Shown here: positions 4,753 through 41,461 of the stretch, piece after piece
How the letters are laid out: the number at the start of each line of letters is the position of its first letter
How positions within the stretch are numbered: the first letter of the stretch is position 1
Assembly: GCA_963575745.1 (NCBI GenBank)
Contig: CAUYUJ010000303.1
Span: forward strand, 310,001 to 374,000
DNA length: 64,000 bases
Direction: 5' to 3'
Origin: Prorocentrum cordatum
Lineage: Eukaryota
The notes under the pieces: generated by a model
The model's database searches: none
What the model was told of the DNA's origin: nothing
What the model saw: the letters and a program-made list of their open reading frames with translations, nothing else
Program-made: the position numbers and the translations under genes

Positions 4753-5037
4753 ACTTTAAACGGAGAAGGTTAAAGGCGAGATGTATATCGAGCATGCACC
4801 GCTGCCGTGCCTGGCTCAAGCCGGGCCCGGCGTAATATGTGATTGTGCCTCACCGAGGCGCACGATTCGTATCTGAGATCGGAAAATACCTTTTCCATTG
4901 ACGATGCCTATTCTATCCTTTACTCCAGATCCCATGCTTCGTCTTGCTCTCTTGCTCATGCGATATGAGCCAAAGCTTGGGATATGGGAACGCCTAAGGC
5001 GTAACATATATCTAAGCTTACCAGCGCGATTTCGACT
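4753..5037 (+). repeat. 5' LTR
   Basis: ACTTTAAACGGAG...GATTTCGACT; differs from the 3' LTR at 2 positions by eye. Confidence 0.95.
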
Positions 5038-8000
5038 TGGTAGCGGAGCTGGCTACACTCTCGTGTGGCTGGCTCTCGCTCTAATACCAGTTATCCACGG
5101 CACAACTTGGTGGACTACTACCACGGTGGAATACCATGTTGCGCCGGCTCTGCGAGGAGCGGAGTCAGTCCGCGATCGAGCTAGCGGGGCAACCCGCGAG
5201 CTCGAGACGCTCTCTCTCACTTCACTGCGCCACTACACTCCAGACTTCCACCAGATGCCAATCGGCAACTCGATCGAGAACGTGGTCACCCTGCGGGGCT
5301 ACCCGCAGAGGGGCCACCTGCATCCCATGCCGGTCAGACGCCTCACGGCTACCACGCCCGAGCCTGACAAACCACAGCCTAAACCAATCACCGAAGCCGA
5401 GATGCACATGCACTGGATTAAGATAACTATCTTCGGCATTTTATGGGTGATATTGGGATGTGCTGTGGGCTACATGCGGCAAGGGATGGACGACACGCGT
5501 ACTACCGGCCCTTCATGGGACCCAGCCGGTACTACGCCCTTTCGCGAATACGTTCGCGAAGTACATGCATGGATAAACGCAACGAGCGGCAATATGACGC
5601 CACCTCAGCAAGCTGCAGCACTACAACGTGGCCTTCAAGGCCTTGCTCGTCGCATCGCCATGCAGGTCCCCTCCCAGATCATCAACTATGGTGTTACCGT
5701 CAACGGACAACCAACGGATGCAGTTACTTACATACTGTACCTATTGAGCACCAAATTTGAGAATCTGGAAGAAGAGCGCCAGCTCAACTCTGGCACTGCC
5801 CTTATCGACTTCCGCGTCGAAAGGGGCGAACGAATCGACTCAGTGTTAGCTCGATTCGAGATGGCCCGTGACGAGGCTAACTCTGTTGGCTTTGTCATCC
5901 CCAACTTTCAGATCCTAACGCTGATCCTTTTCAGAGCGTTAGGCGTTGGCGCGTCACGAGCCCAACACCTGCTGGAGCCCTTTAACCATCAGATGCCCAG
6001 GACACAAGCAGACTACGATAGGCTGCTGACCAGGATGAGGAACTACGGGCATGTTGCCGAACGCTCTCCTGGCAACATTGCGGGCATCTTCACAGGGCAT
6101 CACTCACATGCAGGTGTCTACGCCACGACTGCGGGGTCACCCGCTGGTCCTGGCGAGCCAAGTCCCTGGGCTGACTCAGCCGATATGCCCAACGAGGCCA
6201 CTACCCTCTTAGGGCAGACTGGCCAGGCATCAGCAGAGGCAGCGGAGGCGAACGCCTGGTCGAACTACACGCCGGGCGCCGCCTACACTGCAAGCCCGCC
6301 CTCGGGCACAACCCTCTGGGGCCAAGCGGAGTCATCCGCTCAAGGGTCTCAGCCACCCTCCCCGTTTGAATCTGGCACTGACACCGATACCTCATCTGAC
6401 GGTGATCACAATGGCATAGTCTCTGCTGGTAATGACTATCCAGCCGATGACACTCACCTTTCTGAACAACAAAGAGCGGAAGCCGCTTTTATGGCTTATC
6501 GCAAATCAAAACGCCGTTGGAGGCGCTTCATGAAGAAACCGGTCAGAAAAGTGAGACGTGCAGTACGCCGACATTTCAAACGATATGGAAAGGGTCGTGG
6601 CAAAGGGGGTCGCAGACGCCGTATGCATGGTAGGGGTATTACTGCTTTCCTCACGTCCTTAACTGACATAGTTTTTGAAGAAGTTCTTATCGGAGGTAAA
6701 GGTCGGGGTCATAGGCGGACCTCTGGTAAGGGAAAAGGGCGGAGGGGCAACCCTAGAGACGCTTCTGGCAACGTTATGAAGTGTCATACATGCGGTAGTA
6801 CAGAACATTTACGCGATCATTGCCCGGAGGGGAAAGGAAAGGGATCCGTACATTTGGCTCAAAACTCTTTTATGGACGACATAGACTATATTGACTACGA
6901 GTTTTACATCAACCCAGAAGCGGCTCCCGCCGCGGGCTCCTCCACGTACTACGTGATGGCCCGCTACGCTGATGTGACCGTAGCCTTGGAAGAGTACGCG
7001 GTGAACCTCTTCGACGAGTTCCACGGTTGGGACGAGGTCGACGAGACCGCGTTCAATGCTTGGTTCGGTCTTACAGCGGGGCCACCCGCCGGCGACGAGA
7101 TCTCCGAAGCGGAGACCGCCCCGGCGACCGAGGAGGAGCTCGCCGCCGCGCTGGCACCGCAGGTGATTGGCATGCCGTTGCTGCCAGATCCTCCGCGAGC
7201 CGGCTCGGAAGTGGGAGACGCTGATGACGAAATGCGGGGCCATCCCGCTTACTCTGACTCCGAAGAGGACTATAAGGACATGCTCCGAGAGCAGGTCGCA
7301 GAAGCAATCCAGCTCCTGAGTGCGCCAGCATACCAGCAGATAACCATGAACGGTTTACTGTCGCGCCCAGGGGCCGCAATGTTGCGTCCATACCTGGATT
7401 CGGACATGTCGGCACCACAGATGCTGACAGCACTCCAGATTTTAGCGGGGTCACCCGCCGAAGAGGCGCCAGCCGTAACAGCGGGGCCACCCGCTTGGTC
7501 TATGGAGGTATTCATGCAGGGCTGCGACCAAATGGACCTTAACAACCTCACGATGGAGCAGTTAACCGACATCGGGTACTTTAACAGCCCGCATCAGCAC
7601 GTATTCATGGTCCAGGACAGCTCAGAGGACTCGGAGGACAGGCGCTACGCAAAGAAGGACAGACAACCATCGCCACCCCGAGACCCAGAGCACGGTCGCG
7701 AAGACGAAAGGCCCATGGAACGTGGCAGTGCGTCAGCGGGGCCATCCCGCAGGAGGAGCCGTTCAGCTCCACGACGTCCCACACATGATGCATCAGGCTA
7801 CCCGTGCAGCACGGAGCACTCCGTAGGTGTATCCTCTCAGTACGTGCCGGAGTGGTACATCAATTGGTACCCCGGCTACTCGATGGAGGTTATCCGCCAC
7901 TGGTGGTCCAAAGAGTATTGCGCCAAACGGGACGAATCTGGCATGATAATACGTACCAAGGGTGGTAAGACTAAAACGCCAGAGGCTTGGGACCGAAGGA

Positions 8001-8944
8001 CCAAGAAACAGGAGATCATCAACGATCGCAAGACATACAGAAAACAAGTATGTCAATGCGAGCCCTTCAAGGGTCACATGCGCAGCTGTCCAATGGACCG
8101 CCCCTCCAGAAGCCCTCATCATGGTGAGACCCCTTGGAATTGGTCTCACGGAGATGACGCTGGCAACGTCCACGATCCTAATAAAAGGGTTCCTGGAGGA
8201 GGAAAGCGCATCACTGAAGCCGATCGCGTCCCTATGACCGAGGAGGATGCCAATGCGGTCAGGGAAAATTGGGAACAGCTTCCCAGAGACCATCGCCTCA
8301 AGGAATGGAACCGCCGATTCCATGAAGAGGCGGGGTCACCCGCAGAATCCAGCGGAGAAGCGGGGTCACCCGCAGAGCCCAGCGGAGAAGCGGGGTCACC
8401 CGCAGATGCTGCGCCAGCCGCTGGGTCAGCGGACGACGAGTGGATAGCTGTTGCCTCTGTCGCCGGATCCGCCGCCGGTACTGACCAAACCGAACTGAAT
8501 GAAGAATGGGCGGCGGAAGACGGCTCAGAGAATCCATTCCCTGATGGATGCGCCTGCTGGTACTACAGCTCCTCGGCACAGAAATGGTTCTGCACGAGGG
8601 TAATTTGCCGCCATGAAAATGGCAAGTACAAGTTGGCCATAAAGAATAATGCCGACATCGACCAGATGAGGCAGATCATTCATGATCATGGCCAGCCAGA
8701 AGGCCTTCCGAAAGACCCTCCTGGTCCACAGCCAGGCAAGGGCTCTGCGGGGCCACCCTTAAAGCGGCGTCAGCTGCAGCAGCGGGGACACCCGCAGGAC
8801 CAGGAGCCGATTCCTCATCTCCACCTTCTCCTGCGAAGAGGAACCCTTCTAAGAGCCCCGAAGGCACGCCGGGGCGTGTTAAGGCCAGAGGGATCGCCAA
8901 GGAAGAGGACCCTGAGCAGGAAGAGCCTGCCGGCCCGTCCGTGA
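4898..8944 (+). CDS. Retrotransposon gag-like polyprotein segment with CCHC zinc knuckle
   Basis: CHTCGSTEHLRDHC (CX2CX4HX4C) at 6782-6823 after a basic RG-rich tract; gag-like GPSWDP...FREYVREVHAW near 5505. The true start is probably downstream of the LTR/PBS, and a frameshift is likely near 8760. Confidence 0.8.
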   Translation: MTMPILSFTPDPMLRLALLLMRYEPKLGIWERLRRNIYLSLPARFRLGSGAGYTLVWLALALIPVIHGTTWWTTTTVEYHVAPALRGAESVRDRASGATRELETLSLTSLRHYTPDFHQMPIGNSIENVVTLRGYPQRGHLHPMPVRRLTATTPEPDKPQPKPITEAEMHMHWIKITIFGILWVILGCAVGYMRQGMDDTRTTGPSWDPAGTTPFREYVREVHAWINATSGNMTPPQQAAALQRGLQGLARRIAMQVPSQIINYGVTVNGQPTDAVTYILYLLSTKFENLEEERQLNSGTALIDFRVERGERIDSVLARFEMARDEANSVGFVIPNFQILTLILFRALGVGASRAQHLLEPFNHQMPRTQADYDRLLTRMRNYGHVAERSPGNIAGIFTGHHSHAGVYATTAGSPAGPGEPSPWADSADMPNEATTLLGQTGQASAEAAEANAWSNYTPGAAYTASPPSGTTLWGQAESSAQGSQPPSPFESGTDTDTSSDGDHNGIVSAGNDYPADDTHLSEQQRAEAAFMAYRKSKRRWRRFMKKPVRKVRRAVRRHFKRYGKGRGKGGRRRRMHGRGITAFLTSLTDIVFEEVLIGGKGRGHRRTSGKGKGRRGNPRDASGNVMKCHTCGSTEHLRDHCPEGKGKGSVHLAQNSFMDDIDYIDYEFYINPEAAPAAGSSTYYVMARYADVTVALEEYAVNLFDEFHGWDEVDETAFNAWFGLTAGPPAGDEISEAETAPATEEELAAALAPQVIGMPLLPDPPRAGSEVGDADDEMRGHPAYSDSEEDYKDMLREQVAEAIQLLSAPAYQQITMNGLLSRPGAAMLRPYLDSDMSAPQMLTALQILAGSPAEEAPAVTAGPPAWSMEVFMQGCDQMDLNNLTMEQLTDIGYFNSPHQHVFMVQDSSEDSEDRRYAKKDRQPSPPRDPEHGREDERPMERGSASAGPSRRRSRSAPRRPTHDASGYPCSTEHSVGVSSQYVPEWYINWYPGYSMEVIRHWWSKEYCAKRDESGMIIRTKGGKTKTPEAWDRRTKKQEIINDRKTYRKQVCQCEPFKGHMRSCPMDRPSRSPHHGETPWNWSHGDDAGNVHDPNKRVPGGGKRITEADRVPMTEEDANAVRENWEQLPRDHRLKEWNRRFHEEAGSPAESSGEAGSPAEPSGEAGSPADAAPAAGSADDEWIAVASVAGSAAGTDQTELNEEWAAEDGSENPFPDGCACWYYSSSAQKWFCTRVICRHENGKYKLAIKNNADIDQMRQIIHDHGQPEGLPKDPPGPQPGKGSAGPPLKRRQLQQRGHPQDQEPIPHLHLLLRRGTLLRAPKARRGVLRPEGSPRKRTLSRKSLPARP
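5038..5049 (+). promoter_or_regulatory. Primer-binding site TGGTAGCGGAGC (initiator tRNA-Met-like)
   Basis: Begins with TGG (complement of CCA) immediately after the LTR and resembles known iMet PBS sequences (TGGTATCAGAGC, TGGTAGCAGAG). Confidence 0.8.
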
Positions 8945-10419
8945 CGGAGAGGAGGAAGGCTTTCGCTGGACCATCAACCCCGATGCCACCAGCTGCTCAA
9001 GGCGACGTTAAGGAAGAAGATCGTGATCAGCCTAAGGCAGCTTTCCGAGGTGGCTGGGCTCCAACTCTGCATCAGCCGCGCCTTGCACCACGACCAGGCT
9101 CGGCACGCATGAAAGCACAGCCGAAGCCCGAGGCTGGGATGAGGTCGGTGCGGGCAGAGGCAGTCGCCAAGGCTAAGGAGGACAAGGGCCCTGCGGGGCC
9201 ACCCGCTAAAGCGGCGCCAGCCGCAGCAGCGGGGACACCCGCAGAAGGCACTCTCTCAAGAGAAGAACGCTTTAGAGCCCTCAAGGAATTTGGTGACCAA
9301 CAGAAACTAGCCGACGATGCGGTGGCAGCCCAAGATCACCAGCACTCTGGTGCAAGATCATCCACTGGAGCTGCCTCGGCAGCCGCAAGCTTTGCGGGGC
9401 CACCCGTTAAAGCGGCGCCAGCCGCAGTAGCGGGGCCACCCGTTAAAGCGGCGCCAGCCGCAGCAGCGGGGTCACCCGCAAGTTGGCAACCAGTGATGTC
9501 TGTCCTCAGGAACATCCCTCTGGGAGCCATTGAATATTGGCAAGGCATTGAAGGCAAAGGCCCAAAACGCACCATAAACCCACGAGTCACTCGAGATGAT
9601 ACAGATCGATACGAGGTCATTAATTGTCCTGTTCGTCGTAACTTCGAGTGCCGTAACAACTGGGAACGTGAACAACAAACCGTGGGAAATATGCTGCGTG
9701 ATAGGCCGCCATTGCGAGTCGCGCAGCACAGGGCAGAGCTCATGAAGGTCATGGAGAGGTTCGGCACGGATCCGACTCTGCCGCGCGACGGGCAAATGAC
9801 CAAGGTGTCAATATGGTTCTCTACAGCCCTACGCCAGAGTCCGTATTGGAAGGATGGATTCAGCCGACACTTCGAAAAGATTAGCACTTTCGATCCATGC
9901 GATGGCTGGGTTGTTGTTGACGATTTGCTGACAAACTGGACTGAAAATGATCAGTGGAAAGGCTATCGTGAAATGCACAAGGTGCTGATCAAGGGCAGGC
10001 CCCACACGTCATACGTGTATTGGGTGCTGCTAAACTGCTGTGAGATGATTGATAACCACGGCATGCAGAAGGGCAGGCTCCAGATGAAGTGCGTTGAAGA
10101 CAGTATGCTGCTGCCTCCCAGGTTCCGACCAACGGCACGCAGGCCACAGTACTTCATCAGAGCCACTAACGGCCACAGCAGTCCAGGCATCCACTGTCCC
10201 GAATCGCTTTATAAGCCGATCACAACATGGATGAAAGAACCAGACGACCCAGTATATTTCATCCACGGGACACAGTGGGAATATGTCAAGGACATCCTTG
10301 CTAATGGCCTTTCATGCCTCGCACAGGACAACCCTAAAAGACAGGGGGGGGCGCCAATTTGTACACGGCTGCCCCTACCTTCTGGGCGACCCGAGGATTC
10401 AATCGGGCATCCGTCCTGA
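8941..10419 (+). CDS. Polyprotein segment containing the N-terminal two-thirds of a Tpt1/KptA domain
   Basis: STALRQ...DGWVVVDDLL...KGRL...IRATNGHS...FIHGT...ILANGLS. Confidence 0.8.
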   Translation: MTERRKAFAGPSTPMPPAAQGDVKEEDRDQPKAAFRGGWAPTLHQPRLAPRPGSARMKAQPKPEAGMRSVRAEAVAKAKEDKGPAGPPAKAAPAAAAGTPAEGTLSREERFRALKEFGDQQKLADDAVAAQDHQHSGARSSTGAASAAASFAGPPVKAAPAAVAGPPVKAAPAAAAGSPASWQPVMSVLRNIPLGAIEYWQGIEGKGPKRTINPRVTRDDTDRYEVINCPVRRNFECRNNWEREQQTVGNMLRDRPPLRVAQHRAELMKVMERFGTDPTLPRDGQMTKVSIWFSTALRQSPYWKDGFSRHFEKISTFDPCDGWVVVDDLLTNWTENDQWKGYREMHKVLIKGRPHTSYVYWVLLNCCEMIDNHGMQKGRLQMKCVEDSMLLPPRFRPTARRPQYFIRATNGHSSPGIHCPESLYKPITTWMKEPDDPVYFIHGTQWEYVKDILANGLSCLAQDNPKRQGGAPICTRLPLPSGRPEDSIGHPS

Positions 10420-10560
10420 CTCGGAGGTGCTCATATTCTGCAGCATCAACAAGATGCTGTCCAGTGGCTTTACCCTATGGAGGTCAGCAAATGACATCGT
10501 CATGACACGGGGCCACGACGGCCGTATACCGCCCGATCATATCCTCCAGATTGTGAGCAT
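9800..10560 (+). CDS. TPT1: RNA 2'-phosphotransferase (Tpt1/KptA) domain, split by a frameshift near the G8 run 10344-10351
   Basis: Family motifs occur in order: LR(H>Q), DGWV, KxR, IRAxxGHS, HGT, GLS. The next frame continues RQFVH, SGIRPDSEVLIF, RSANDIVMTRGHDGRIPPDHI. Confidence 0.85.
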
Positions 10561-13500
10561 TGCGAAATATCGGGTCGGTGAAGCCTGGAGCAATCCGCTG
10601 GCTTATGACAAGTCGCGGAGGCGGGGCCAACCCGCGGACAGGATTCGCACCGATGACTACCTGCCACTTAAATTATGTGACAGAACTCTGCGTCTGATGG
10701 AAGATCACGCCATGTACCTAAAGGGCTGGTCTAAGACGGACGGTCGTCCATTTAACTTGATCATGACCGAACAAGATGTTGCTCCACGACCGTACCTCAC
10801 ACAGACAGTCCTCATGATAAGTGCCCAGGAAGACGAGGTCATGCCTGAAGCGGGGCCACCCGCAGGTGCGGGGACACCCGCGGCAGACACCCCGGATGGT
10901 TCATGGCAGCAAGTGGTCACACCAGTAGCGACGGTAGCATCTCCTTGGAGGCCGGACCAGCAGACATGGGTCCAGGCCCTCAACAGCTACTTGTCACCAG
11001 CCGACGTTTCTGGACTGACCGATCAGCTATACCGTGCTGACCCGTGGGCAGTGCATACAGGTATCCAAGATGCACGGCAGAGGAACCTGCGTACCCTTGC
11101 GGGGCCACCAGGCGTCCTAGGACCACAGCCACAGCGCCCTCCGCAGCAGGCTGGAGGCGCGAGGTTTGTCCCTATGGGCGGCTCCGATGGTGGCTCGCCG
11201 TTCCGGACTCCGCCGTCTGAGACGAGCGAGAACAGCTTGTGGCAAAGACTCCAGGCGATTCGCGGAAATCCAGCACTCGCGGCAGCACTCCAAGCAACCA
11301 CTCCCTTTGGCACTCCGAGGGGTAGTGAAGGAGGAGCAGCTGCGGGGTCACCCGCTGGGCGAACGCCTGCGGAGCCACCCGCACATGCGGGGCCACCCGC
11401 TGACGGACAGCAAGGTTCAGACTACGAACGTCGGGCAGCCAACCTAAGAGCACAGGCTACTTTTCTGCAGCAACAAGCTGATAGAGTGCCCAGCCTGTTG
11501 CGGAACCGCAACATAGATGTTACGAATCATGGCGACTTTCGGCCTCTCTGGAGCTGGACTTCTGAAGATGCTCCAAATGCTGATCCCACGAATCCATATC
11601 GACAGGTGTTTATTCCAGGAATAGCATCACACCCGATATATGGATGGGACAATCACGGTCCAGCAGAGGCGCAGGCCATGGACGCGCCGATGTACCCGGA
11701 GTACTACGCGCAGATGAATAACACCCCTATGATTGCGGGGCCACCTGCGAACGAATACACTCGGAATCTAGCCAATGAGATGTTTCGTTTGCAGTTTACA
11801 CGAGCGGTCGATGCGCAGTCTATGCCGCACTACGCCTACATGCCCACGCCGACGGACCCCGAGACCGTAGTTCAGCCAGCTGGTCTCGCGGTGCCAGCCG
11901 CTATGGGCAGCATGCCAGACTACATCCGCGACGTGCACAACACGCAGCAAGCGATACTGGCATCTAGGCAGCAGGCTCGGGACAACACTAGGCTGCGCCA
12001 ACAACGCGCGATCCAGAGAAGGATTGAGCGCGAGACCCAAGCGGGGACACCCGCAGAAGCGGGGCCACCCGCTGAACGGCCAGACAGACGGCCGCCACCG
12101 ACGCCATATCGGGAGGGCGAAACCACTTTCGAGCGCCAAGCTCGGACTCGCCCTGACGTGCCTGCTCCAGTCATTTCAGACTACAACTTCACACAGTGCC
12201 CAATCTGCATGGACAACTACGAGATGGGCACTACAGTGTGGAGACTGGCGTGTGGGCACTTCTTTCACGATATATGCTGGATCGTTGCACAGCAGCACGT
12301 CCGCAATCAGCGGCCAGGTGCGCCGAATGAGGCCCCCTGCGCTGTATGTCGTGGGCCGGGCATAGTTATAGCACACTTCCCGTATGCTGGACAGCGCGAC
12401 GCTGAATCAGAACAAGCGCGCCAGCAGGAAAGGTACGCGGCAGATGCCCGGGAAATGCGTCGGCCACGTGAAGCAGTGGAGGCACTGGAGGCTCGAGCCG
12501 CACAATCGGCGGAGCCATCCGCACGTGCCCCAGCTGCACAGGCATACCCCTGGCCAGCGCCAGAGCAAGGCATTCAGATGCCAATCCTGCCTACGCTTCG
12601 AGCGCAGGAGCCCCCAGCTGCGGGGCCACCCGCTGAAGCGGCTCCCGCCGCACAAGCGGGGCCACCCGCTGAAGCGGCTCCCGCCGCACAAGCGGGGCCA
12701 CCCGCAAATGGACCTCCAAATCCAGGTTTCCTGAGGACAATGGAGGCCAACATCAGGCGGAGTGGCAGGAGCGGAGGCGGGACTCGATGGCCAACTGGAT
12801 CAGCCAGGACCTCGCGAGTGGCAAGCCCGGTCAGCGCCAGGAGCCGGGCAAGCGCTGAGAGCGCAGAGGCAGCCCAGTTCCATACCACATTCATGATCGA
12901 TACAGAGGGGCTGACCTACGCACGTGACGACACGGACACGCTGCCACCAGGAGGTGAATGGATGTCCACGCTATCTGCGAATTATTGGGTCCTTGAGCAG
13001 GAACCAATTACCGTGGAGGAGCGCCGCCAGTATGAGCAGATGTGGTGCACCGAGCTGACCATGAGTCAATGGGTTCTTGAACAACGCCTGTTGAAGGGTA
13101 CACTCGGATCGCAGATCACGTACCACACCAATGACCATGGGACAATCGCTCTGGCAGCGCGCAATGGGACATTCTTTCCTGACGAAGATGGTATGCCCTG
13201 CATCTCGTTCATGCTGGACATTGGTTCCAATGTGAATATCATTGGATCCAACACGGCGCGAACCTTCCAGGAGATTATGGCCAGGTTCAACTACCGACCT
13301 GCCATATGCACCCTGAGCAAGACCCTCTACATCAATGGTGTTGGTGAGGGCGCTGCGATATGTCGGAAGATGGGCAACTTCACGATCGGGGTACAATATG
13401 CCAATGAGGCGAGCCCCCGTATTGAGGAGTATGCCTCCAACATCGCAGAAGGCTCGGGTGCCAATCTCCCGGCCATCTGGGGCCTAGGAGCCATGGAGGC

Positions 13501-14239
13501 ACGTGACACGATCATCGTGCTGAAGCCAGGCTACCAGAAGGTTATCTTCCCCAGCGGTGACTACACCCTGAAGCTGGGAAGAGGCGCCAAGGTCCTGAAG
13601 GCGAAGAAAACTCCCTCGGGACATCTCGCGATTCCCTGCGGTTTGTATGACGGGGCTAAAAGCCAGACGGCCACGAACACCTTCACAATCCGCAGCAGTC
13701 GAGATGGCTATACCGAGACGGAGAACGAAGAGGACCCCGTCAGTGCGGGGTCACCCGCCGAAGCAAGTGCGGGGCCACCCGCTGAAGCAAGTGCGGGGCC
13801 ACCCGCTGAAGCAACAGCGGGGCCACCCGCGACGGGACAGTCTATGACCGTCACGACCGATACGTACATTGTCGAGCCGTACATCGACGAGCAGCTCCTG
13901 GAAGACACGACCCGTTTGATCGTGGACAGGACGCTGAACAGCTGGTGGGAGGGCCAACAGTGTCCCGAAGGGACCTGGCCACATATGAAGGATGCCCTGA
14001 AGTCTAAGATCTTCTGGGCAGTCCAGGAGGCGGTGAATAAATGGTCGCCTGAGGACCAAGCGGGGCCACCCGCGTCACCGCCACCACCACCAAGCTACAC
14101 GGGCGGAGGTTCGTCGGACTCTGCGGGGCCAACCCGCGTGGAGATCGTTGGCGTGGCCACACCAGCGACTCCTGCGGAGCCATCCGCTAACAGCATGCCT
14201 CCGAGTCAGACGGCAACGTGGTCACACGACCGCCGCTGA
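10283..14239 (+). CDS. Polyprotein segment: Tpt1 C-terminus, low-complexity linker, RING-H2 finger, aspartic protease
   Basis: RING CPIC..LACGHFFHDIC..CAVCR at 12197-12352; retropepsin-like FMLDIGSNVNIIG near 13205-13245 with downstream PAIWG. Confidence 0.8.
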   Translation: MSRTSLLMAFHASHRTTLKDRGGRQFVHGCPYLLGDPRIQSGIRPDSEVLIFCSINKMLSSGFTLWRSANDIVMTRGHDGRIPPDHILQIVSIAKYRVGEAWSNPLAYDKSRRRGQPADRIRTDDYLPLKLCDRTLRLMEDHAMYLKGWSKTDGRPFNLIMTEQDVAPRPYLTQTVLMISAQEDEVMPEAGPPAGAGTPAADTPDGSWQQVVTPVATVASPWRPDQQTWVQALNSYLSPADVSGLTDQLYRADPWAVHTGIQDARQRNLRTLAGPPGVLGPQPQRPPQQAGGARFVPMGGSDGGSPFRTPPSETSENSLWQRLQAIRGNPALAAALQATTPFGTPRGSEGGAAAGSPAGRTPAEPPAHAGPPADGQQGSDYERRAANLRAQATFLQQQADRVPSLLRNRNIDVTNHGDFRPLWSWTSEDAPNADPTNPYRQVFIPGIASHPIYGWDNHGPAEAQAMDAPMYPEYYAQMNNTPMIAGPPANEYTRNLANEMFRLQFTRAVDAQSMPHYAYMPTPTDPETVVQPAGLAVPAAMGSMPDYIRDVHNTQQAILASRQQARDNTRLRQQRAIQRRIERETQAGTPAEAGPPAERPDRRPPPTPYREGETTFERQARTRPDVPAPVISDYNFTQCPICMDNYEMGTTVWRLACGHFFHDICWIVAQQHVRNQRPGAPNEAPCAVCRGPGIVIAHFPYAGQRDAESEQARQQERYAADAREMRRPREAVEALEARAAQSAEPSARAPAAQAYPWPAPEQGIQMPILPTLRAQEPPAAGPPAEAAPAAQAGPPAEAAPAAQAGPPANGPPNPGFLRTMEANIRRSGRSGGGTRWPTGSARTSRVASPVSARSRASAESAEAAQFHTTFMIDTEGLTYARDDTDTLPPGGEWMSTLSANYWVLEQEPITVEERRQYEQMWCTELTMSQWVLEQRLLKGTLGSQITYHTNDHGTIALAARNGTFFPDEDGMPCISFMLDIGSNVNIIGSNTARTFQEIMARFNYRPAICTLSKTLYINGVGEGAAICRKMGNFTIGVQYANEASPRIEEYASNIAEGSGANLPAIWGLGAMEARDTIIVLKPGYQKVIFPSGDYTLKLGRGAKVLKAKKTPSGHLAIPCGLYDGAKSQTATNTFTIRSSRDGYTETENEEDPVSAGSPAEASAGPPAEASAGPPAEATAGPPATGQSMTVTTDTYIVEPYIDEQLLEDTTRLIVDRTLNSWWEGQQCPEGTWPHMKDALKSKIFWAVQEAVNKWSPEDQAGPPASPPPPPSYTGGGSSDSAGPTRVEIVGVATPATPAEPSANSMPPSQTATWSHDRR

Positions 14240-14440
14240 CGGGGGCAGGCGGGCGCGCCGGCGGCGCTCGCTTGCGAAGAGAAGCCGAATACCGGCCTCC
14301 TCGCTACATACGTTGGCCGCGCTGAGGCCCGAGAGGAAAAATATCATTCAAAATGTCTTGTCATCGAAGATATTCGCACAGCTTGCGCTGAACTCCGAAC
14401 CCGTGGATATATATGCGACCGGATTACCCATAATGAGGTA

Positions 14441-17400
14441 ATGACTTCAACTGGAACACAGTATTTGGGAAATTTGTTGGCAGGAGACTACAATATGTTG
14501 TGGGTGGCCACACCCTCTGATTGGTACGTTCGTACTCCAGGAAAGAGGGCGGGACCACACTATCAACGTATACAAAATCTCCTGATCAAAGCGCGTGCTC
14601 TGAGGATGCAGATTGTTATCCTGGGGCCACCCGGGTATTTCTGGAAACAGGGTCCGATCAAAGATGTTATCGAAGATTTGAAGCTAAGCATTATACGAAT
14701 GAGACTCTGTCATTTCGGTATCAAGTTTGACCGCTCCAGTAAATATCCCAGTGGTTCTTATATACAAGTTGCTACATCTTGTCCTCATATACCGATAAAC
14801 TTATGGAGATGTACTTGTGGCTCACACAAAGAGCATGATTTGGATTGGTATGGCCAAGATCAGCAACGTGCCGAGTTTCGGCATAAAACTTTGGCTATCA
14901 TTATTGCACGCTTCCTTGATCAACTCAATAAAGCCAACATGATCAGGAATGAGCGGAGTGCGGTACACCTCAGTGTGTGTACTCGCGTTGACAAAAAGGT
15001 AAGACACTACGTCCCATGCCCACAAAAGGGCCCTCAATGGGACCATGTTGTTCGTAGATTCACGACCGACCTGGACACGAATAAGATCGTTCAAGATATC
15101 AGAATCCAGGATCAGCCGACTGGGTACAATCATGTAGCTCCATTGCCTGATGGGGTTACAAACATCAGTACTCGGTTATACTGGGAACCTCCGGCTCCAG
15201 TTCTTCACGGCGACGGTGAGTCGCGAAGGCCACGCCCAAAGCGTGTGACGATCGTCGATGACGATCGATCTCCTCCCCCTTCGATTGAGCGTTGCCAAAC
15301 GCGACCCACCTACTTTCCTGAAATTCCGTCACTTCCTGACTTAACAGCGGATTCCTCCGCAGCGGATCTCTCCGCGGAAACTGCGTTGCCCACTGATGCC
15401 AGGATAAAACAGAAAGAAAAGCAGAAAGCTGACGAAGAGGCTGGCATCAAACCAAAGAAAATCCCGAAGAAAGTGGAAGACGGCAACGACGACTGTGGAG
15501 AGGACCTCAAAGGGCTTGACTGCTCCACATATTTCAACGACGTTCCTCTTGACGACTCGGACTCGGACAGCGAATCAGAGGACATCTTCATGATGTTACC
15601 GGCGGGGCAACCCGCTGACTCACATGCTGATGTCTTCTCGATGGTCCAGTCATTATGCTACGGCAGAAACAATCAAGTGGACATGCTTGAATTATGTGGG
15701 GGCAAGGGTGGTATATCCATATTAGCCTTCAAGAGGGGACTCTCGTCAGGCGGGAACCTTGACAAGATATCTATGGTTGACCTTGGAAACTCGGAAGTAC
15801 AAAGAGCAGTCCTCCACTACCTCAAGACTTGCTTTGTCAAGATCACGATTCTGCAGCCAAGCTGCAGAACTACTGGACTTCCTTCATACTTCAATGCACA
15901 GGTCAATCATGATACGTGGCTTAAACACCACAAAGAGGACCTGCCTCACATCACGTTCTGTGGAACAGTCGCTCTACTACAAGACGACCTAAGACGTTTC
16001 TTTCTTAGGGAACAACCAATGGGCACGTGGGTGGATGAGATCCAGCCATGGAAGGAACTGGCACAACGCAAGGTCACTTGCCAAACGATTATTGATCAAT
16101 GCACGACTGGTCTCAAAGATTCGTTTGGACAATATATTCGCAAGCCAACACAGATGATGGCAAACAAAGAAGAGTTGTTGGCACCTTTCAGAGGCAAGCG
16201 TTGTCCAGGTAATCATGTGCACGCCAATGCTTGCAATAAAGAATTAGCAAGGGCGGCACAGTATACTTGCAGAATGCAGTCGCTGATCGTTGACGTGGTG
16301 CAAATCGCCAAAGATCTGTTTGCTTACGGTCGCGACCCATTCGCGAATCGTGAACGCAGCTATGCGTCCGTAACAAACAGTGCTGGCTACGACTTGGACG
16401 ACACAACAATCCAGAGACACCCAAACGGAGAAATCCGACGACCACCACCTGGCGGTCTTGGGCGCCCTGGCTGTGTGGACAACAATTACAAGCAATCACC
16501 AAAGCACAGCAGGGATCCGAAAATGTGTCGGTGGTATGATGTTGAACCATACTATTGGGACTGTCCAAGCTGTAAGAAGGAATATCAGAAGAGTAATCCT
16601 CACCACACCAAGATATCTGGCCAATGCAGATTCGCCGAAAAATGGAAGCTGCCAGATAACTTTGGTCAGCCGCGCCCGGCGGGGCAAGCAGCTCCTGCGG
16701 CGCCGGCCGCGGAAGCGGCTCCAGCCGCAGAAGCGGCGCCAGCCGCAAAAGCGGCGCCGGCCGCGAGAGCGCGCATACGCGCGCCTAGGCCGCCACGGCC
16801 CGGTGAGGGCGATCCAACCGCAGGCGCCAGCAGTCATGACATCACCAGAGCCGAAGGGGCTAATGGTGGCAACACTGGCGCTGGCAGCTCTGACGATCAC
16901 CGTAGACTGCCGCAAGTGGCAGCAAGGCGCGGACGCATGGAAGGAGGTGATCCTCCACCGCCGCCGCAGCCTCCTGTAGAGCCGAGGCCAAGGCCAAGGC
17001 TTCCTGATTGGACTCGTTTCGATGTTCAGCTCAGCCTTCAAAACCTGCGCAGCTTTGACCCAGCTGTAGTGCAGCGAGAACTCCGCAAGCTTCACTTGAG
17101 ATGGTTTCATGCCAAGGAACCAAAGATGCGGATGATTCTAGCTAAGGTTGGTCTGGGCGAAACCCGTTTGAGTCTGATTAAGGGCATTTGCGACTCATGT
17201 AGAGAATGTCGTGCCTGGGACAAACCAGGCAACACAGTGATGCCATCTGTGTCACTGCCAGGACATTTCAACGAGGAAGTCGAATGTGCTCTTTTCTTTT
17301 ACAAACAGGAACATATTGTTTTTCACATCATCGACCGTTGTATTCGTTGGGCAGCTGGTACAGAGATCCCCGATAAGACTATGCACACTGTTCTCGATGC

Positions 17401-19132
17401 CTATCACACAACTTGGATGCAGCATGGCCCTGCCAAAGTCTTATACTCCGACGGGGAAGGAGCACTGAATAACGATACAGCAAAGGCCATCCTTAAATCC
17501 AAGGGAACAGAGCTTCGTATCCGAGCGCGTGGCCAACACGCCACGACTATCGAAGCTAGGAACGGCATCCTGCGACACCTCATACACGTGATGGGAGAAG
17601 AATTGAATAGATTGAATATTCCTCTGAATTTCACTCGTCTTTTACATGGAGCCATGTTTGCCAGCAGTGCATTTACCTTCTACAACGGAGCTTCTCAGTA
17701 TAATGCGTTATATGGCAGACAACCAGCTATGCTTCCCGATTTCCCTGTCTTGGATCATGATCAGTCTGCTGAATCATCAGATCACTCAAGGGAGGAGACA
17801 ATCAGGAGGGTTAGTCTGGAGGCAATCACGCAGGCCACTGCGGTTGCCAAGACAAACAGGGCTCTTCGTACGAAGACTACTGCTACGGGTGAATTTCACT
17901 ACCGAGAGGGAGATCTCGTGGACTATCATCGCCCGACCACCACGAAAGATGACTGGGGTGGATGGAGTGGTCCATACCCGGTCATCCGCAACGAACCTGA
18001 CCGGGGTCAAGTCATCGTGAAGGTCGGCAGTCGCGAAGTGCGAGTACAGTATCCTGACACACGACATACGCTGTACATCGAAGCACTGATGGTCCGCGAG
18101 ATAGGATCGGACAATACGGCCCTTCGGACAGTATTGGCCTTTATTGCCGGTCTGTCAGCGGGGAAGCCCGCCATGACTTTTGGATACTTACCAGCGAAAC
18201 AGGGCCGGCTGCAGATGACTGCTGCGAGCCGGCTTTCGCCTAAAGTGCACCTGGCTCTTCAGTATCTCATTCGCAACTATTTTCGCATTGAAAACGTTGT
18301 TGCCGTACGACTTGCCAAGAGCCTGACTAAGTTGCCTGCTGCACCCTATGCAGACAGCTGTACACTAGTGCACTATGATAATGATGTGACCCCTGGCTTT
18401 CATTATTATGAAGCTGATGGCACCGCCTTGAACATCTACGACATCACAGGATCTACACACTCACGTATCATCCAGTGTCTCAAATCCAAGAAGCCGCCTG
18501 CTGGATTCGACCGAGACCTCACTAAATTTGAGGAACTCGCTGATGGTCCACCACCAAGCGAGTCACCTCCAGCAGCTGCTCCTGAGCAGCCTCCTGCGGA
18601 GAATGGTGGTCGGCTCCCGACCATCATAGAGGAAACAGAAGAAGATCTGGATGCCTTTGTCTTAAAGTCGTGGTATGCTGAACTGATGGATGACAGAACA
18701 CTCTTTGAAGCTGACACAGAAGAAGTCATGCATACAGTTCCGACATACATGACAGACACACAGTGTGTGTTAGTCTCTACGACCTGTGAAGATGTGCAAG
18801 GCCACTTGCCGGAGCGGGGTCACCCGCCAGGATACGACATGGACACCTCTTACTACGTTCCTTTGTGCCCACGGATCCGGACAACAAATATGATCTGGAT
18901 TCCGACGAGCACGGGAAGTACATCGAGCTCTGCTTCACAGCAGACATGTCCAAAGTCGTCCTGTCCGAGCAGCAACACCGATTGCTGGATGACAGCAGCG
19001 TCACAACTATGCGAGTATACGTTAGTGCTGCCTCCAAACGTGCCGTGGTCGTCAAGGAAGACGATCTACTCACGAAGGCCGACATTCAAGCGAATCCGGT
19101 CAAAGTTTCCAAAGCCCTATACACATAATTGA
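14441..19132 (+). CDS. Polyprotein segment: C5-DNA-methyltransferase-like domain and integrase
   Basis: MTase-like motifs LELCGGKGG, QPSC, REQP, DQC..G..RKPT at about 15670-16300. Integrase HLRWFH..CDSCREC zinc finger, YSDGEG, IEARN and SH3-like GDLVDY..WSGP at about 17080-18060. Frameshift likely near 18800. Confidence 0.85.
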   Translation: MTSTGTQYLGNLLAGDYNMLWVATPSDWYVRTPGKRAGPHYQRIQNLLIKARALRMQIVILGPPGYFWKQGPIKDVIEDLKLSIIRMRLCHFGIKFDRSSKYPSGSYIQVATSCPHIPINLWRCTCGSHKEHDLDWYGQDQQRAEFRHKTLAIIIARFLDQLNKANMIRNERSAVHLSVCTRVDKKVRHYVPCPQKGPQWDHVVRRFTTDLDTNKIVQDIRIQDQPTGYNHVAPLPDGVTNISTRLYWEPPAPVLHGDGESRRPRPKRVTIVDDDRSPPPSIERCQTRPTYFPEIPSLPDLTADSSAADLSAETALPTDARIKQKEKQKADEEAGIKPKKIPKKVEDGNDDCGEDLKGLDCSTYFNDVPLDDSDSDSESEDIFMMLPAGQPADSHADVFSMVQSLCYGRNNQVDMLELCGGKGGISILAFKRGLSSGGNLDKISMVDLGNSEVQRAVLHYLKTCFVKITILQPSCRTTGLPSYFNAQVNHDTWLKHHKEDLPHITFCGTVALLQDDLRRFFLREQPMGTWVDEIQPWKELAQRKVTCQTIIDQCTTGLKDSFGQYIRKPTQMMANKEELLAPFRGKRCPGNHVHANACNKELARAAQYTCRMQSLIVDVVQIAKDLFAYGRDPFANRERSYASVTNSAGYDLDDTTIQRHPNGEIRRPPPGGLGRPGCVDNNYKQSPKHSRDPKMCRWYDVEPYYWDCPSCKKEYQKSNPHHTKISGQCRFAEKWKLPDNFGQPRPAGQAAPAAPAAEAAPAAEAAPAAKAAPAARARIRAPRPPRPGEGDPTAGASSHDITRAEGANGGNTGAGSSDDHRRLPQVAARRGRMEGGDPPPPPQPPVEPRPRPRLPDWTRFDVQLSLQNLRSFDPAVVQRELRKLHLRWFHAKEPKMRMILAKVGLGETRLSLIKGICDSCRECRAWDKPGNTVMPSVSLPGHFNEEVECALFFYKQEHIVFHIIDRCIRWAAGTEIPDKTMHTVLDAYHTTWMQHGPAKVLYSDGEGALNNDTAKAILKSKGTELRIRARGQHATTIEARNGILRHLIHVMGEELNRLNIPLNFTRLLHGAMFASSAFTFYNGASQYNALYGRQPAMLPDFPVLDHDQSAESSDHSREETIRRVSLEAITQATAVAKTNRALRTKTTATGEFHYREGDLVDYHRPTTTKDDWGGWSGPYPVIRNEPDRGQVIVKVGSREVRVQYPDTRHTLYIEALMVREIGSDNTALRTVLAFIAGLSAGKPAMTFGYLPAKQGRLQMTAASRLSPKVHLALQYLIRNYFRIENVVAVRLAKSLTKLPAAPYADSCTLVHYDNDVTPGFHYYEADGTALNIYDITGSTHSRIIQCLKSKKPPAGFDRDLTKFEELADGPPPSESPPAAAPEQPPAENGGRLPTIIEETEEDLDAFVLKSWYAELMDDRTLFEADTEEVMHTVPTYMTDTQCVLVSTTCEDVQGHLPERGHPPGYDMDTSYYVPLCPRIRTTNMIWIPTSTGSTSSSASQQTCPKSSCPSSNTDCWMTAASQLCEYTLVLPPNVPWSSRKTIYSRRPTFKRIRSKFPKPYTHN

Positions 19133-20835
19133 AGACTTGGCTTGACAACAAATGCTTCCAGATGACTGACTTGAACAAAGCGTCGAACACCATGACTTCA
19201 CGCTATGTATACAAATGGAAGTTTGTCAAGAACGAGAAGGGCGACATGGAACGGACGATCAGGTTACGCTTAGTACTCCGTGGCTTCATGGACATTGAAG
19301 CCTTCGATGTCGAAACCTTCTCTGGCACAGCAAGGAGGTCAAACCAGAGACTGCTCGCAAGTTCTGCTGCATGCAGCAAAGCTTGGATCATCGCTTCCCT
19401 GGACATCAACATGGCTTTCTTAAAGGGACTGACCTATAGTGAGCTCGCCGCGGCAACGGGTGAGAAAGAGCGTGTGGTGTGCTTCACACTACCTCCTGGG
19501 TCAGCAGCTGTCCTTCGTACACTGCCAGGCTTTGAGTCACATGACGAATCAAAGCACTGTCTTCGGCGTCTGAAGCCGGGGACGGGCACGAAGGATGCTC
19601 CCAGGGCATTCTCGTTGAAGCTCAGGTCCATCACTCGGAGCTTTGGACTACAGCCTACGTCATACGACGAAGAATTCGAGATGAGCCCAAACCTCTTGAC
19701 AGCCAAACACGTTGATGACATTAATATGACTGGGAAGGAAGATGCTATTGACAAGTATGTCAAGTGTGTTGAAGATACGTTTGGAAAGTGCAAACTGAAC
19801 AAGCACACATACACAAACTGTGCCGTTCGGTACAACAAGACCGATGATGGGAGCGTCACTCTCGATCAGGACGAATACATCAAACAGCTTCGTCCTATCA
19901 CACATCCAGAGCTCACAGGCGCTGATCCTGAGAGTAAAGCGACAAAGACGATTTCTGATATGTTCGTCAGTCTTCGCGACGCTCTAGCCTATGCGTTGAT
20001 TACGCAGGTATGGCTGATGGTCTATGTTGTCTCACTACAACGTATCCAGGAACCGACAAACATCCAGGTACGACGACTAAACGCGGTTACCAGGAAATTG
20101 CAGGCAGGTCCGAAGAAGATCGTATATCAAGCTATGACTCCAACAGGAGAAGTCGACCTGCATAGCGACTCTGGCTATCGTCGTCTCAACGGAGACGAAG
20201 ACGACGAAGTCAAAGGCTATGGTATCCGCGGGGCTAACCTGCTGAGGCGTGGCCACACGCAAGCGGGGAAACCCGTCGTGCACCTGGTGGACGCATACTG
20301 CAAGTCTCATCGACTGCACGTGCGTTCGAGCTACTCTGCGGAAACACTGGCAGCAGCCCACAACTTGGAAGACTGCTACCCGACCATTGTAACGCTCCAC
20401 GAGCTACACTCGGGACCATTGACCCGCACACAGTTAAAGAACATATTGGAAATGGGTGGTCTATGTATCAAAGTCACTCTGACTATTGCTGCCGAGTCCG
20501 TCTTCAAGTCTTTGTCTAGCAAAGATCTGAAGAAGCCCACAGAATGTACTCTGCTTGGGCACATCAGCTGGATCCGCCAGATGATGGAGCGCGGAATCGT
20601 TGAAAGCGTTCAATGGTGTGACACGCGGGATATGACTGCCGATGGTCATACCAAAGGTAGTATTGACCGCGCGTTGCTCCTACAAGTAATGGCCGGCCAG
20701 CAATCCTTCAAGCACGAGCTGAAGAAACATACACCGTATAGGGCGGGCAGGTCGTCTCAAGACGGTCCTGCCTCCCGAGCTAGCGGGGAAACCCGCATGC
20801 AGGTGCGCTTTAGTAGCGAGGAAACTCGCCGGTAG
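19129..20835 (+). CDS. Copia-type reverse transcriptase and RNase H
   Basis: SRYVYKWK, RLVLRGF, LDINMAFL, GTKDAPRAF, HVDD (19708-19719); RNase H SDS, SSYSAE, MTADGHTK. The coding sequence probably joins upstream through the frame of 18865..19128. Confidence 0.92.
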   Translation: MKTWLDNKCFQMTDLNKASNTMTSRYVYKWKFVKNEKGDMERTIRLRLVLRGFMDIEAFDVETFSGTARRSNQRLLASSAACSKAWIIASLDINMAFLKGLTYSELAAATGEKERVVCFTLPPGSAAVLRTLPGFESHDESKHCLRRLKPGTGTKDAPRAFSLKLRSITRSFGLQPTSYDEEFEMSPNLLTAKHVDDINMTGKEDAIDKYVKCVEDTFGKCKLNKHTYTNCAVRYNKTDDGSVTLDQDEYIKQLRPITHPELTGADPESKATKTISDMFVSLRDALAYALITQVWLMVYVVSLQRIQEPTNIQVRRLNAVTRKLQAGPKKIVYQAMTPTGEVDLHSDSGYRRLNGDEDDEVKGYGIRGANLLRRGHTQAGKPVVHLVDAYCKSHRLHVRSSYSAETLAAAHNLEDCYPTIVTLHELHSGPLTRTQLKNILEMGGLCIKVTLTIAAESVFKSLSSKDLKKPTECTLLGHISWIRQMMERGIVESVQWCDTRDMTADGHTKGSIDRALLLQVMAGQQSFKHELKKHTPYRAGRSSQDGPASRASGETRMQVRFSSEETRR

Positions 20836-20943
20836 CGAGGCTACTCGCGCGCCCTTACCTTGTAGGCAGCCGCTGTTGCCTAGTACTGTTTTTTTTTCCG
20901 CGTAATGTAGTAATGCGGTGCTCGCTCGTCTCCCCCCCCTCCG

Positions 20944-41390: not shown

Positions 41391-41461
<71 letters not shown>

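Follow-up and report, generated by a model that had tools for sequence, protein, structure and literature searches.

Why should one small hairpin be written dozens of times through the coding sequence of a retrotransposon, and is it the encoded peptide or the nucleic acid itself that is maintained? The question is raised by a 64,000-nt stretch of Prorocentrum cordatum DNA (GenBank assembly GCA_963575745.1, contig CAUYUJ010000303.1, positions 310,001 to 374,000 of the forward strand), which is called the window below and in which positions are counted from the first letter. The hairpins, with the general form GCGGG-GNNA-CCCGC, lie in a single intact Ty1/copia long terminal repeat (LTR) retrotransposon of this dinoflagellate, which spans 16.5 kb (4753-21228), with an internal region of 15.9 kb. 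We found that the repetition is real and far beyond chance. It is also very probable that a fold of the + strand is under selection; the most likely carrier of this fold is the genomic RNA, and plus-strand DNA is compatible with the data as well.

Number, strand and loops of the hairpins

The whole window was searched on both strands for the exact motif GCGGGGNNACCCGC. The results showed 30 matches, all of them on the + strand and between 5184 and 20796, while the expectation from 100 dinucleotide-preserving shuffles was 0.03 on average and 1 at most. When one mismatch was allowed, six further sites were obtained, giving 36 + strand sites in 5184-20796 (shuffle mean, 1.03); the sole one-mismatch match elsewhere was a self-complementary site at 63663, which was scored on both strands (38 rows in total). 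No exact copy was found on either strand of the LTRs or of the 47.5 kb of flanking DNA. An earlier note, made from the sequence by eye, had spoken of about 35 copies, all on the + strand and none outside the LTR bounds, and the searches agree with it on each count (36 of 36 sites on the + strand). The copy positions it listed hold as well, with 9194 corrected to 9193.

The same note described a nearly invariant stem with a varying loop. Seven loop types were indeed present among the 31 GCGGG....CCCGC sites: GCCA (13), GTCA (9), GACA (4), GCAA (2), GCTA (1), GAAA (1) and GAAG (1). To these are added, within the element, the stems GCGGC/GCCGC, GCGGA/TCCGC, GCGAG/CTCGC, GCGTG/CACGC and GCGTT/AACGC. 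We therefore also counted every 5-bp Watson-Crick stem with a 4-nt loop beginning with G and ending with A. Inside the element there were 48 such hairpins on the + strand versus 6 on the - strand, and in the 47.5 kb flanks 5 versus 5; with G.U pairs allowed the numbers inside the element were 63 and 8, respectively. Among the + strand 5-bp stems with 4-nt loops, each loop-end pair other than G..A was seen at most 7 times.

The copies and their variants are distributed as follows; the method by which a copy was found is given where it applies.

5177-5204 (+): leader stem-loop, in which the copy at 5184-5197, GCGGG-GCAA-CCCGC, caps a 7 + 5 pair stem with one mismatch
5293-5306 (+): GCGGG-GCTA-CCCGC, phase 2 of the open frame, leader or gag start
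6131-6144 (+): GCGGG-GTCA-CCCGC (AGSPA), motif search
6326-6339 (+): variant GCGGA-GTCA-TCCGC with an A-T closing pair, stem count
7076-7089 (+): GCGGG-GCCA-CCCGC (AGPPA), motif search
7445-7494 (+): two hairpins, at 7445 (GTCA loop) and 7481 (GCCA loop), motif search
8330-8403 (+): three hairpins, at 8330, 8360 and 8390, in a 30-nt tandem unit, motif search
8782-8795 (+): GCGGG-GACA-CCCGC in the overlap of two open frames, RGHP in one and AGTPA in the other
9193-9242 (+): three hairpins at 18-nt spacing, 9193 GCGGG-GCCA-CCCGC, 9211 GCGGC-GCCA-GCCGC and 9229 GCGGG-GACA-CCCGC
9394-9479 (+): five hairpins at 18-nt spacing, at 9394, 9412, 9430, 9448 and 9466, GCGGG/CCCG[TC] alternating with GCGGC/GCCGC; a G.U end pair at 9394 and 9430
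10850-10881 (+): two hairpins, at 10850 and 10868, motif search
11342-11400 (+): three sites, at 11342, 11369 (GCGGA/CCCGC with an A.C closing mismatch) and 11387
11735-11748 (+): GCGGG-GCCA-CCTGC with one G.U pair, one-mismatch search
11888-11901 (+): variant GCGGT-GCCA-GCCGC with one U.G pair, stem count
12041-12072 (+): two hairpins, at 12041 and 12059, just upstream of the RING finger, motif search
12509-12522 (+): variant GCGGA-GCCA-TCCGC, stem count
12620-12705 (+): three hairpins, at 12620, 12656 and 12692, in a 36-nt tandem unit downstream of the RING finger
13745-13830 (+): four hairpins, at 13745, 13769, 13793 and 13817, in a 24-nt tandem unit
14060-14073 (+): GCGGG-GCCA-CCCGC, its AGPPA peptide retained in the relative P0136
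14174-14187 (+): variant GCGGA-GCCA-TCCGC, stem count
15289-15302 (+): variant GCGTT-GCCA-AACGC, stem count
15602-15615 (+): GCGGG-GCAA-CCCGC (AGQPA), motif search
16733-16746 (+): variant GCGGC-GCCA-GCCGC inside the 18-nt tandem array 16697-16764
18158-18171 (+): GCGGG-GAAG-CCCGC, one-mismatch search; the ortholog in locus L001 is also a hairpin
18814-18827 (+): GCGGG-GTCA-CCCGC, phase 2 (RGHP); L001 ortholog GCGAG-GAAA-CTCGC
20247-20276 (+): a pair of neighbouring hairpins where the protein has a variable loop, 20247 GCGTG-GCCA-CACGC (retained in L001 and L016) and 20263 GCGGG-GAAA-CCCGT
20783-20796 (+): GCGGG-GAAA-CCCGC near the 3' end, phase 1, within a word shared with the leader copy
20816-20848 (+): two hairpins, GCGAG-GAAA-CTCGC (20816) and GCGAG-GCTA-CTCGC (20835), straddling the stop codon 20833-20835

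Most copies are in frame and lie in variable linkers between protein domains, so that the RING, protease-like and Tpt1 regions are flanked by them; the very 3' end has three hairpins, one of them across the stop codon. The word that had been noticed near both ends is 21 nt long (5177-5197 and 20776-20796) with 95% identity between its two occurrences. The deviating loop G at 18166 is private to this copy of the element, A being present in every covering contig of the runs X1 (21), X2 (2) and X9 (1). In the 36-nt array, GCGGC-TCCC-GCCGC units (12638-12651 and similar) with T..C loops alternate with the main motif.

Reading phases and codon choice

With respect to the reading frame, 31 of the 36 sites are in phase 0, where they encode A-G-x-P-A or a one-residue variant. 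The statement that some copies are read in other frames is also correct: two are in phase 1 (5184 and 20783) and three in phase 2 (5293, 8782 and 18814). The phase-2 translation of 18814 (R-G-H-P) is confirmed by an 84%-identical relative.

A repeated peptide signal would be conserved in its amino acids with synonymous codons left free. On the contrary, 26 of the 27 A-G-x-P-A peptides are encoded by one codon set, GCG-GGG-xxA-CCC, and the 27th has CCT, by which a G.U pair is kept. Outside the motifs GCG makes up 24% of the Ala codons, GGG 16% of the Gly codons and CCC 17% of the Pro codons, giving a joint expectation of 0.65% per peptide. The middle codon ends in A in 26 of the 27 peptides, and where it encodes Ser it is TCA in all 8 cases, compared with 20% of the Ser codons elsewhere. 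The reverse orientation, GCGGGTNNCCCCGC, is equally able to encode A-G-x-P-A, and a motif search of the whole window found it 0 times on the + strand.

Covariation and folding in the element

To look at pairing itself, we collected every + strand site matching GCG..G..A..CGC, a pattern in which the outer three pairs and the loop ends are fixed and the two inner pairs are free; the inner positions are therefore not selected for pairing by the search. Among the 43 sites obtained, both inner pairs are Watson-Crick in 41, and one further site has a G.U pair. The 41 sites comprise six inner-pair combinations, GG/CC (30), GC/GC (4), GA/TC (3), AG/CT (2), TT/AA (1) and TG/CA (1). In the alignment of the 43 sites, 99.5% of the cells are paired versus 91.1% in shuffles, 12 cells are changed on both sides versus 1.0 expected, and the covariation score is 0.213 versus 0.044; none of 500 shuffles reached the observed value in any of the three measures. 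When the partner columns were shifted by 1-3 positions, pairing fell to 36-52%. The stem covariation that the earlier note had proposed as a check is thus present at the free inner pairs.

The isolated hairpin has a predicted fold energy of -9.3 kcal/mol. The leader (5038-5254) folds with a z-score of -5.34, none of 200 shuffles folding as well, and the stem-loop at 5177-5204 is present in both the minimum free energy and the centroid folds.

Hairpins of the same shape in related families

Nineteen related loci with 35-83% identity were obtained from a metagenome scan with a reverse transcriptase (RT) alignment. The exact motif of the window occurs in none of the 19 loci. The same shape with other stems, TCACG/CGTGA, GCAYG/CGTGC and GCGAG/CTCGC, is found in relatives at 57-83% RT identity, where it is read as different peptides. 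The commonest gapped word (5 letters, 4 free, 5 letters) was also sought without any reference to pairing, and it proved to be TCACG....CGTGA in L008 (10 copies) and in L014 (7), GCGGG....CCTGC in L001 (3) and GCGGG....CCCGC in the window (31). The words of L008, L014 and the window are perfect inverted repeats, and that of L001 pairs with one G.U; the loops of these words are almost all G..A. Hairpins of the types GC[AG][CT]G-G.AA-CG[CT]GC occur in L004, L005, L006, L009, L012 and L017, and L005 has additional ATCCG/CGGAT and GCTTG/CGAGC stems. The loops found in the relatives are GAAA, GGAA, GGGA, GAGA, GCAA and GTAA, with GNRA loops in L001, L004, L005, L008, L012 and L014, and the G..A loop ends are common to all families. 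Summed over the 19 loci there are 32 Watson-Crick hairpins on the + strand and 13 on the - strand, or 57 and 29 with one G.U allowed.

The hairpins of the relatives are translated in phase 2, as x-[H/R]-G-[N/D]-[V/A/T]-x and not as AGxPA, and therefore the peptides differ among families while the shape is the same. In this phase Gly is encoded by the final base of the stem together with two bases of the loop, and each outer codon is the reverse complement of the other. Consistent traces were seen in 134 further proteins related to the element, 27 of which have a tetrapeptide recurring at least 3 times. The commonest recurrent tetrapeptide is PGNR (7 times), HGNV, TGNG or PGDR in five of the 27 and EHGN in a sixth; PGNR, HGNV, TGNG and PGDR have outer residues with reverse-complementary codons. 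Over all x-G-[ND]-y tetrapeptides, complementary-codon pairs make up 26.1% of 820 versus 18.2% of 8059 x-G-[not N or D]-y, a modest excess that is diluted by conserved domain positions; the recurrent tetrapeptides give the clearer picture.

Orthologous sites were compared between the window (16300-21000) and L001, which are 68.9% identical over 4608 columns; a paired stem is retained at 6 of the 15 window hairpins. At 16295 there is one C/T change with pairing kept, at 18158 one change to G.U, at 18796 a changed loop with the stem kept, and at 20247 an identical stem. Two sites have compensatory changes: at 18814 GCGGG/CCCGC corresponds to GCGAG/CTCGC, a double change by which the peptide is altered too, and at 20816 GCGAG/CTCGC corresponds to GCGGG/CCTGC, a compensatory change with one G.U. 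Between L008 and L014, which are 96.2% identical, the 80 stem positions of the 8 shared hairpins include one difference, which produces U.G; no difference falls on the 16 loop ends and two, both A/G, on the 16 loop-middle positions. At the peptide level, the linker upstream of the RING finger has two AGxPA in the window versus RGNA or RGNL in 39-45%-identical relatives. In the array 13745-13830, the four copies of the window correspond to three with different spacers in the 87%-identical relative P0136.

Contigs of other copies of the element align in two pieces at some places, with the breaks in or beside motifs (7438>9193, 9471>7491 and 12609>12050). Recombination between copies, with deletion or rearrangement from one hairpin to another, may have produced these joints, or the repeat may have misled the alignment; the joints are only a hint because the contigs were placed at 80% likeness on a repeat. 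In L008 (4123-5217) and L014 (2981-3595), a second open frame lies downstream of the RT/RNase H frame and has four and two family hairpins, respectively, in the same phase; it may represent an additional gene, or else a neighbouring element may begin here. A metagenome scan with the protease-region protein gave 54 pattern matches and 0 relatives, scans of viral contigs, one by the tandem-motif pattern and one by RT alignment, found nothing, and in Rfam no family matched, apart from one sub-threshold chance match.

What selection is likely to act on

Across families, the constant features are the 5-bp stem, the G..A loop, the sense-strand orientation and the placement in the leader, the inter-domain linkers and the 3' end; the stem sequence, the reading phase and the encoded peptide vary. 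Such a pattern is expected if a single-stranded fold is selected, and is not expected of a peptide signal or of a site in double-stranded DNA. The earlier suggestion that selection acts on nucleic-acid structure, and not on the peptide, is accordingly strengthened from four sides, namely the fixed codons, the covarying stem pairs, the different stems and phases of the relatives and the compensatory changes at orthologous sites.

For the whole of the observations, the best explanation appears to be that + strand hairpins are selected on the genomic RNA and serve as many binding sites for the element's Gag in packaging, and we consider the chances of this complete account to be evenly balanced. 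The function in packaging or self-recognition, taken by itself and judged from the analysis as a whole, is possible, with the balance leaning somewhat against it. According to this proposal selection would maintain the fold and not the peptide, copies would be tolerated where the protein is unconstrained, and they would multiply locally by slippage of 18-36-nt units. The hairpins would be many binding sites for an RNA-binding protein encoded by the element, most plausibly the Gag region with its arginine-rich stretch and CCHC knuckle, and Gag would in this way select and condense its own long RNA into particles. A family-typical stem might help each family to recognise its own RNA among the many copia families of one genome; a stem that is nearly uniform inside each family yet differs from one family to another would agree with such family-specific recognition, and equally well with homogenisation by copy-choice among hairpins. 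A bolder proposal, which we offer tentatively and regard as rather unlikely, is that a clade of giant dinoflagellate copia elements carries in-frame RNA hairpin 'barcodes' acting as orthogonal many-site packaging signals, with dozens of copies of a family-typical 5-bp stem and G..A tetraloop in the leader and the linkers, and with each Gag picking and condensing its own ~16-kb RNA among many co-resident families.

Several observations weigh against selection for an RNA fold with a packaging role. When the sites were folded with 60 nt of context on each side, the mean stem pairing probability exceeded 0.5 in 19 of 36 on the + strand and in 10 of 36 on the - strand, a figure explained by neighbouring copies, which compete and can pair with each other; the 3' region overall is not unusually structured (z-score, -0.72). 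Near-hairpins with one non-Watson-Crick pair on the + strand comprise 10 G.T and 5 A.C in the window, and 25 G.T and 29 A.C in the 19 loci, where recurrent A.C-mismatched forms such as GCATG-GAAA-CACGC occur; this comparison gives no support for strand-specific pairing, so the strand signal rests on the G..A loop and the orientation. In the main class of the window 26 of the 31 loops are GNCA, with a pyrimidine at position 3, and the class is therefore GNNA and not GNRA. Five hairpins of the element have T..C loops on the + strand, that is, G..A loops on the - strand. The hairpin excess among the relatives is confined to a few loci, and many related loci, mostly short RT-domain contigs, are without it; in one variable protein loop after the RT domain a hairpin is present in 5 of 15 sequences, each of its own family's type. 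Many copies lie in tandem units of 18, 24, 30 and 36 nt, which can be multiplied by slippage alone. Finally, the element copy in the window may itself be inactive, as it has frame breaks and an in-frame stop.

The tandem units lead directly to the main rival, in which the hairpins are functionless self-propagating micro-palindromes: each would cause pausing, slippage or template switching of the RT or a polymerase, and the units would duplicate and spread to tolerant linkers by mutational drive. We think this unlikely, while acknowledging how much it accounts for, since besides the tandem arrangement it explains why copy number and spacers differ between 87%-identical relatives (four versus three), why split alignments end in or beside motifs and why A.C mismatches are as common as G.U. 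Drive of this kind does not explain isolated orthologous copies kept across 31% divergence, two of them with compensatory double changes, nor loop ends that are G and A in all families, a stem length constant at 5 bp and a copy that caps the long leader stem; the contig joints, made at 80% likeness, can be effects of the repeat on the alignment. The compensatory changes and the conserved loop ends in particular argue against it. It is quite improbable that A-G-x-P-A is a repeated protein signal, such as a protease cleavage site or a flexible linker, whose shared codons come from recent duplication. Such a signal would agree with the 31 of 36 copies in phase 0 between domains, with the retention of AGxPA in the 87%-identical relative and with the expectation that protease sites lie at domain borders and are family-specific. 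It is contradicted by the single codon set, by the differing flanks of the dispersed copies and by the copies in phases 1 and 2 and in the leader; moreover, sister families have the same hairpin shape with other peptides, the Gly being encoded by different hairpin positions, and several independent families would not by chance all have perfect 5-bp inverted repeats with G..A loops.

A signal at the level of DNA seems improbable too, whether the inverted repeat were bound by a dimeric protein, methylated at its CpGs or extruded as a cruciform once the element is integrated. The stems are inverted repeats with two or more CpGs in most families, and their transition-type decay to both G.T and A.C resembles CpG deamination. 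Against this stand the uniform orientation (48 versus 6, with the reverse motif never on the + strand despite its equal coding capacity), the asymmetric G..A that a reader of double-stranded palindromes would not require, and stem sequences that differ among families and covary. The methyltransferase targets that the earlier note had offered as one option are disfavoured, because the constant features are shape and strand and not sequence, and because Pfam detects no DNA methyltransferase domain in the element. Very improbable, in our opinion, is a role as translational pause sites, in which a ribosome delayed at each inter-domain hairpin would give one domain of the polyprotein time to fold before the following one emerges. 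Most copies do lie in inter-domain linkers flanking the RING, protease-like and Tpt1 regions, but a 5-bp stem of this energy is a weak obstacle for a ribosome, copies are also present in the leader and after the stop codon, and neither the conserved G..A loop nor the family-typical stem is needed for pausing.

The host element

The element has long terminal repeats in direct orientation, a short target-site duplication and the copia order of domains, with RVT_2 at the 3' end and the integrase upstream. The features recognised in it, apart from the hairpins, are the following.

4748-4752: target-site duplication ATGCA, 5' copy, read in the sequence
4753-5037 (+): 5' LTR, 285 bp, 99.3% identical to the 3' LTR (2 mismatches)
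5038-5052 (+): primer-binding-site-like stretch starting with TGGTAGCGGAGC, adjoining the 5' LTR
6490-6640, approximate (+): arginine/lysine-rich gag stretch, candidate RNA-binding arm, from the translation, with residues counted back from the zinc knuckle
6779-6829 (+): gag CCHC zinc knuckle, zf-CCHC E 0.13, under the Pfam cut-off, with C-X2-C-X4-H-X4-C spacing visible
10033-10513 (+): Tpt1/KptA RNA 2'-phosphotransferase-like domain, PF01885 E 3.8e-07 and 8.3e-05, split by a frame change in this copy
12194-12352 (+): RING finger, zf-RING_11 E 6.9e-07 and zf-RING_2 E 3.3e-06
13202-13672 (+): hairpin-free conserved domain, probable retropepsin, where most listed matches align to query residues ~874-1030
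19147-19929 (+): copia-type reverse transcriptase (RVT_2), PF07727 E 7.2e-12, in the last frame
20944-21228 (+): 3' LTR, 285 bp, direct-orientation partner of 4753-5037
21229-21233: target-site duplication ATGCA, 3' copy, directly after the 3' LTR

The stretch TGGTAGCGGAGC after the 5' LTR may match the 3' end of initiator tRNA-Met; the window contains no tRNA with which it could be compared. The arginine-rich stretch of gag is about 50 residues from the CCHC knuckle. The domain at 13202-13672 is probably a retropepsin, an assignment made from the translation and not by Pfam. The integrase of the window, which gave no Pfam match, is a putative one read by eye, and relatives aligning in the RT region carry PF00665 (rve) upstream. 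Accessory domains such as the Tpt1/KptA-like domain and the RING finger, which lie between gag and the protease-like region, are unusual in a copia element; the RING region is common to relatives at 37-48% identity.

The internal region is one long reading frame, which would encode a polyprotein of about 5000 residues and which is split into five pieces in this copy, with an in-frame stop at 14237-14239. In other copies of the family the frames are joined, by 1-nt differences at positions 10344 and 18868 and by replaced segments around 8730-8795 and 14199-14242; this copy is therefore slightly damaged despite its near-identical LTRs. Programmed frameshifting at the frame changes was considered and rejected, as plain indels or replaced segments are present in other copies and no slippery site was seen.

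The RT of the element is 46% identical to Polarella glacialis records and about 43% identical to Symbiodinium. A word-based protein search with the hairpin-rich frame gave one match, to a protein record of Prorocentrum cordatum in which a fragment with 98% identity accounts for 8% of the query, the relatives being crowded out by low-complexity words. The public runs listed as containing parts of the element number 20; they belong to 15 studies and are for the most part metagenomes of marine, estuarine or fresh water. The summed contig depth on the element is in the thousands in two runs, and the family is therefore very abundant. One RNA run, X20, has 10 contigs on the element, and as such a library can contain DNA this is no proof of transcription. 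Across the contigs of other copies aligned to the element there are 1363 variable places.

Other features of the window

Upstream of the element, several tandem arrays adjoin one another at 1289-2243, with periods of 53/134, 11/105 and 87 nt. Downstream of it, a 1285-residue open frame at 27555-31412 on the + strand has a PIF1-like helicase domain (PF05970, E 1.8e-15), which would suit either a Helitron-type element or a helicase gene of the cell. Positions 37684-40857 are taken up by a large array resembling a satellite, its nested periods being 35, ~221 and ~436 nt, and there is a strong skew of G over C (0.43-0.45) at 38-42 kb. Long microsatellites are located at 41182-41499 and 42158-42698, comprising (TGA) in about 106 copies and (TGCTA)/(GCTAA) in about 85 and 35 copies.

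Significance and comparison with known systems

Outside Ty1 and the retroviruses, little is understood of how an LTR retrotransposon selects the RNA that it packages. The candidate signal described here is repeated about fifty times inside a reading frame, its stem changing between families while its shape stays, and it offers a directly testable system for many-site, family-specific RNA recognition, resembling proposals for large RNA virus genomes. If the barcode proposal were true, it would be the first dispersed packaging-signal system in a retrotransposon, and RNA structure would dictate recurrent peptides (AGxPA, HGNV, PGNR) in a polyprotein. The hairpins illustrate how short recurring peptides can be imposed on a protein by RNA structure. 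They also offer a simple sequence signature by which the copia elements of dinoflagellate genomes, which are very abundant, could be classified.

The boxB hairpin of lambdoid phages, which is bound by the arginine-rich N peptide and functions in antitermination, resembles the present hairpins in its 5-bp G+C-rich stem with a GNRA-like loop, and the candidate binder, gag, likewise has an arginine-rich stretch. boxB has a pentaloop and is present in one or two copies per transcript, whereas the loop here is a tetraloop and binding is a candidate function. As in GNRA tetraloops, the loop begins with G and ends with A in every family, while the family of the window mostly has GNCA instead. Rickettsia palindromic elements and the GC clusters of yeast mitochondria are mobile units of 30-150 bp spread over a genome. 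They share with the present motif the tolerance of a hairpin-forming sequence within reading frames; unlike them, the unit here is 14 nt long and confined to one element family, and in place of copies across unrelated genes and intergenic DNA the 47.5 kb flanks of the window have none that is exact.

The packaging signals of human immunodeficiency virus type 1 and murine leukaemia virus are psi hairpins in the leader, and known signals comprise one or a few hairpins. The Ty1 stem-loops for packaging and dimerisation, bound by Gag or nucleocapsid protein, are reportedly confined to the leader or the gag start. The element resembles these systems in its leader stem-loop, which lies just downstream of the putative primer-binding site, in a Gag that combines a basic region with a CCHC knuckle, and in a purine-containing tetraloop, and it differs from them in that the same hairpin recurs through the whole 15.9-kb internal region. 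A full-text literature search, with most subscription journals outside its reach, did not reveal an account of tetraloop hairpins repeated in frame, either in a retrotransposon or in dinoflagellates. Copia elements of dinoflagellates are described as abundant and heat-activated, with no mention of such motifs in the accessible parts of the two articles (PMC5890265; the dinoflagellate genomics review PMC11453091), and, in the accessible part of the former, as being without a DNA methyltransferase (PMC5890265).

The nearest described analogue, judging from the accessible part of its description, is the repetitive structural motifs of coronavirus genomes, which are lineage-specific, occur in two to eight copies, located in the 5' untranslated region and between domains of the polyprotein frame, and have been proposed as packaging signals (PMC8206606). 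As in coronaviruses and other + strand RNA viruses, the element has several short stem-loops of one shape with a shared, conserved loop feature, which are dispersed in the genomic RNA, placed in the 5' untranslated and inter-domain regions and lineage-specific in sequence. In contrast to that system, as far as this part of the source covers it, there are 36-60 copies here versus two to eight there, the carrier is an LTR retrotransposon and not a virus with a nucleocapsid protein, the loop types are different, and packaging, proposed or tested for the viral motifs, is here a predicted role. Repeated structural motifs of the packaging type are themselves already known; what is new here is their unusual copy number and their unusual host.

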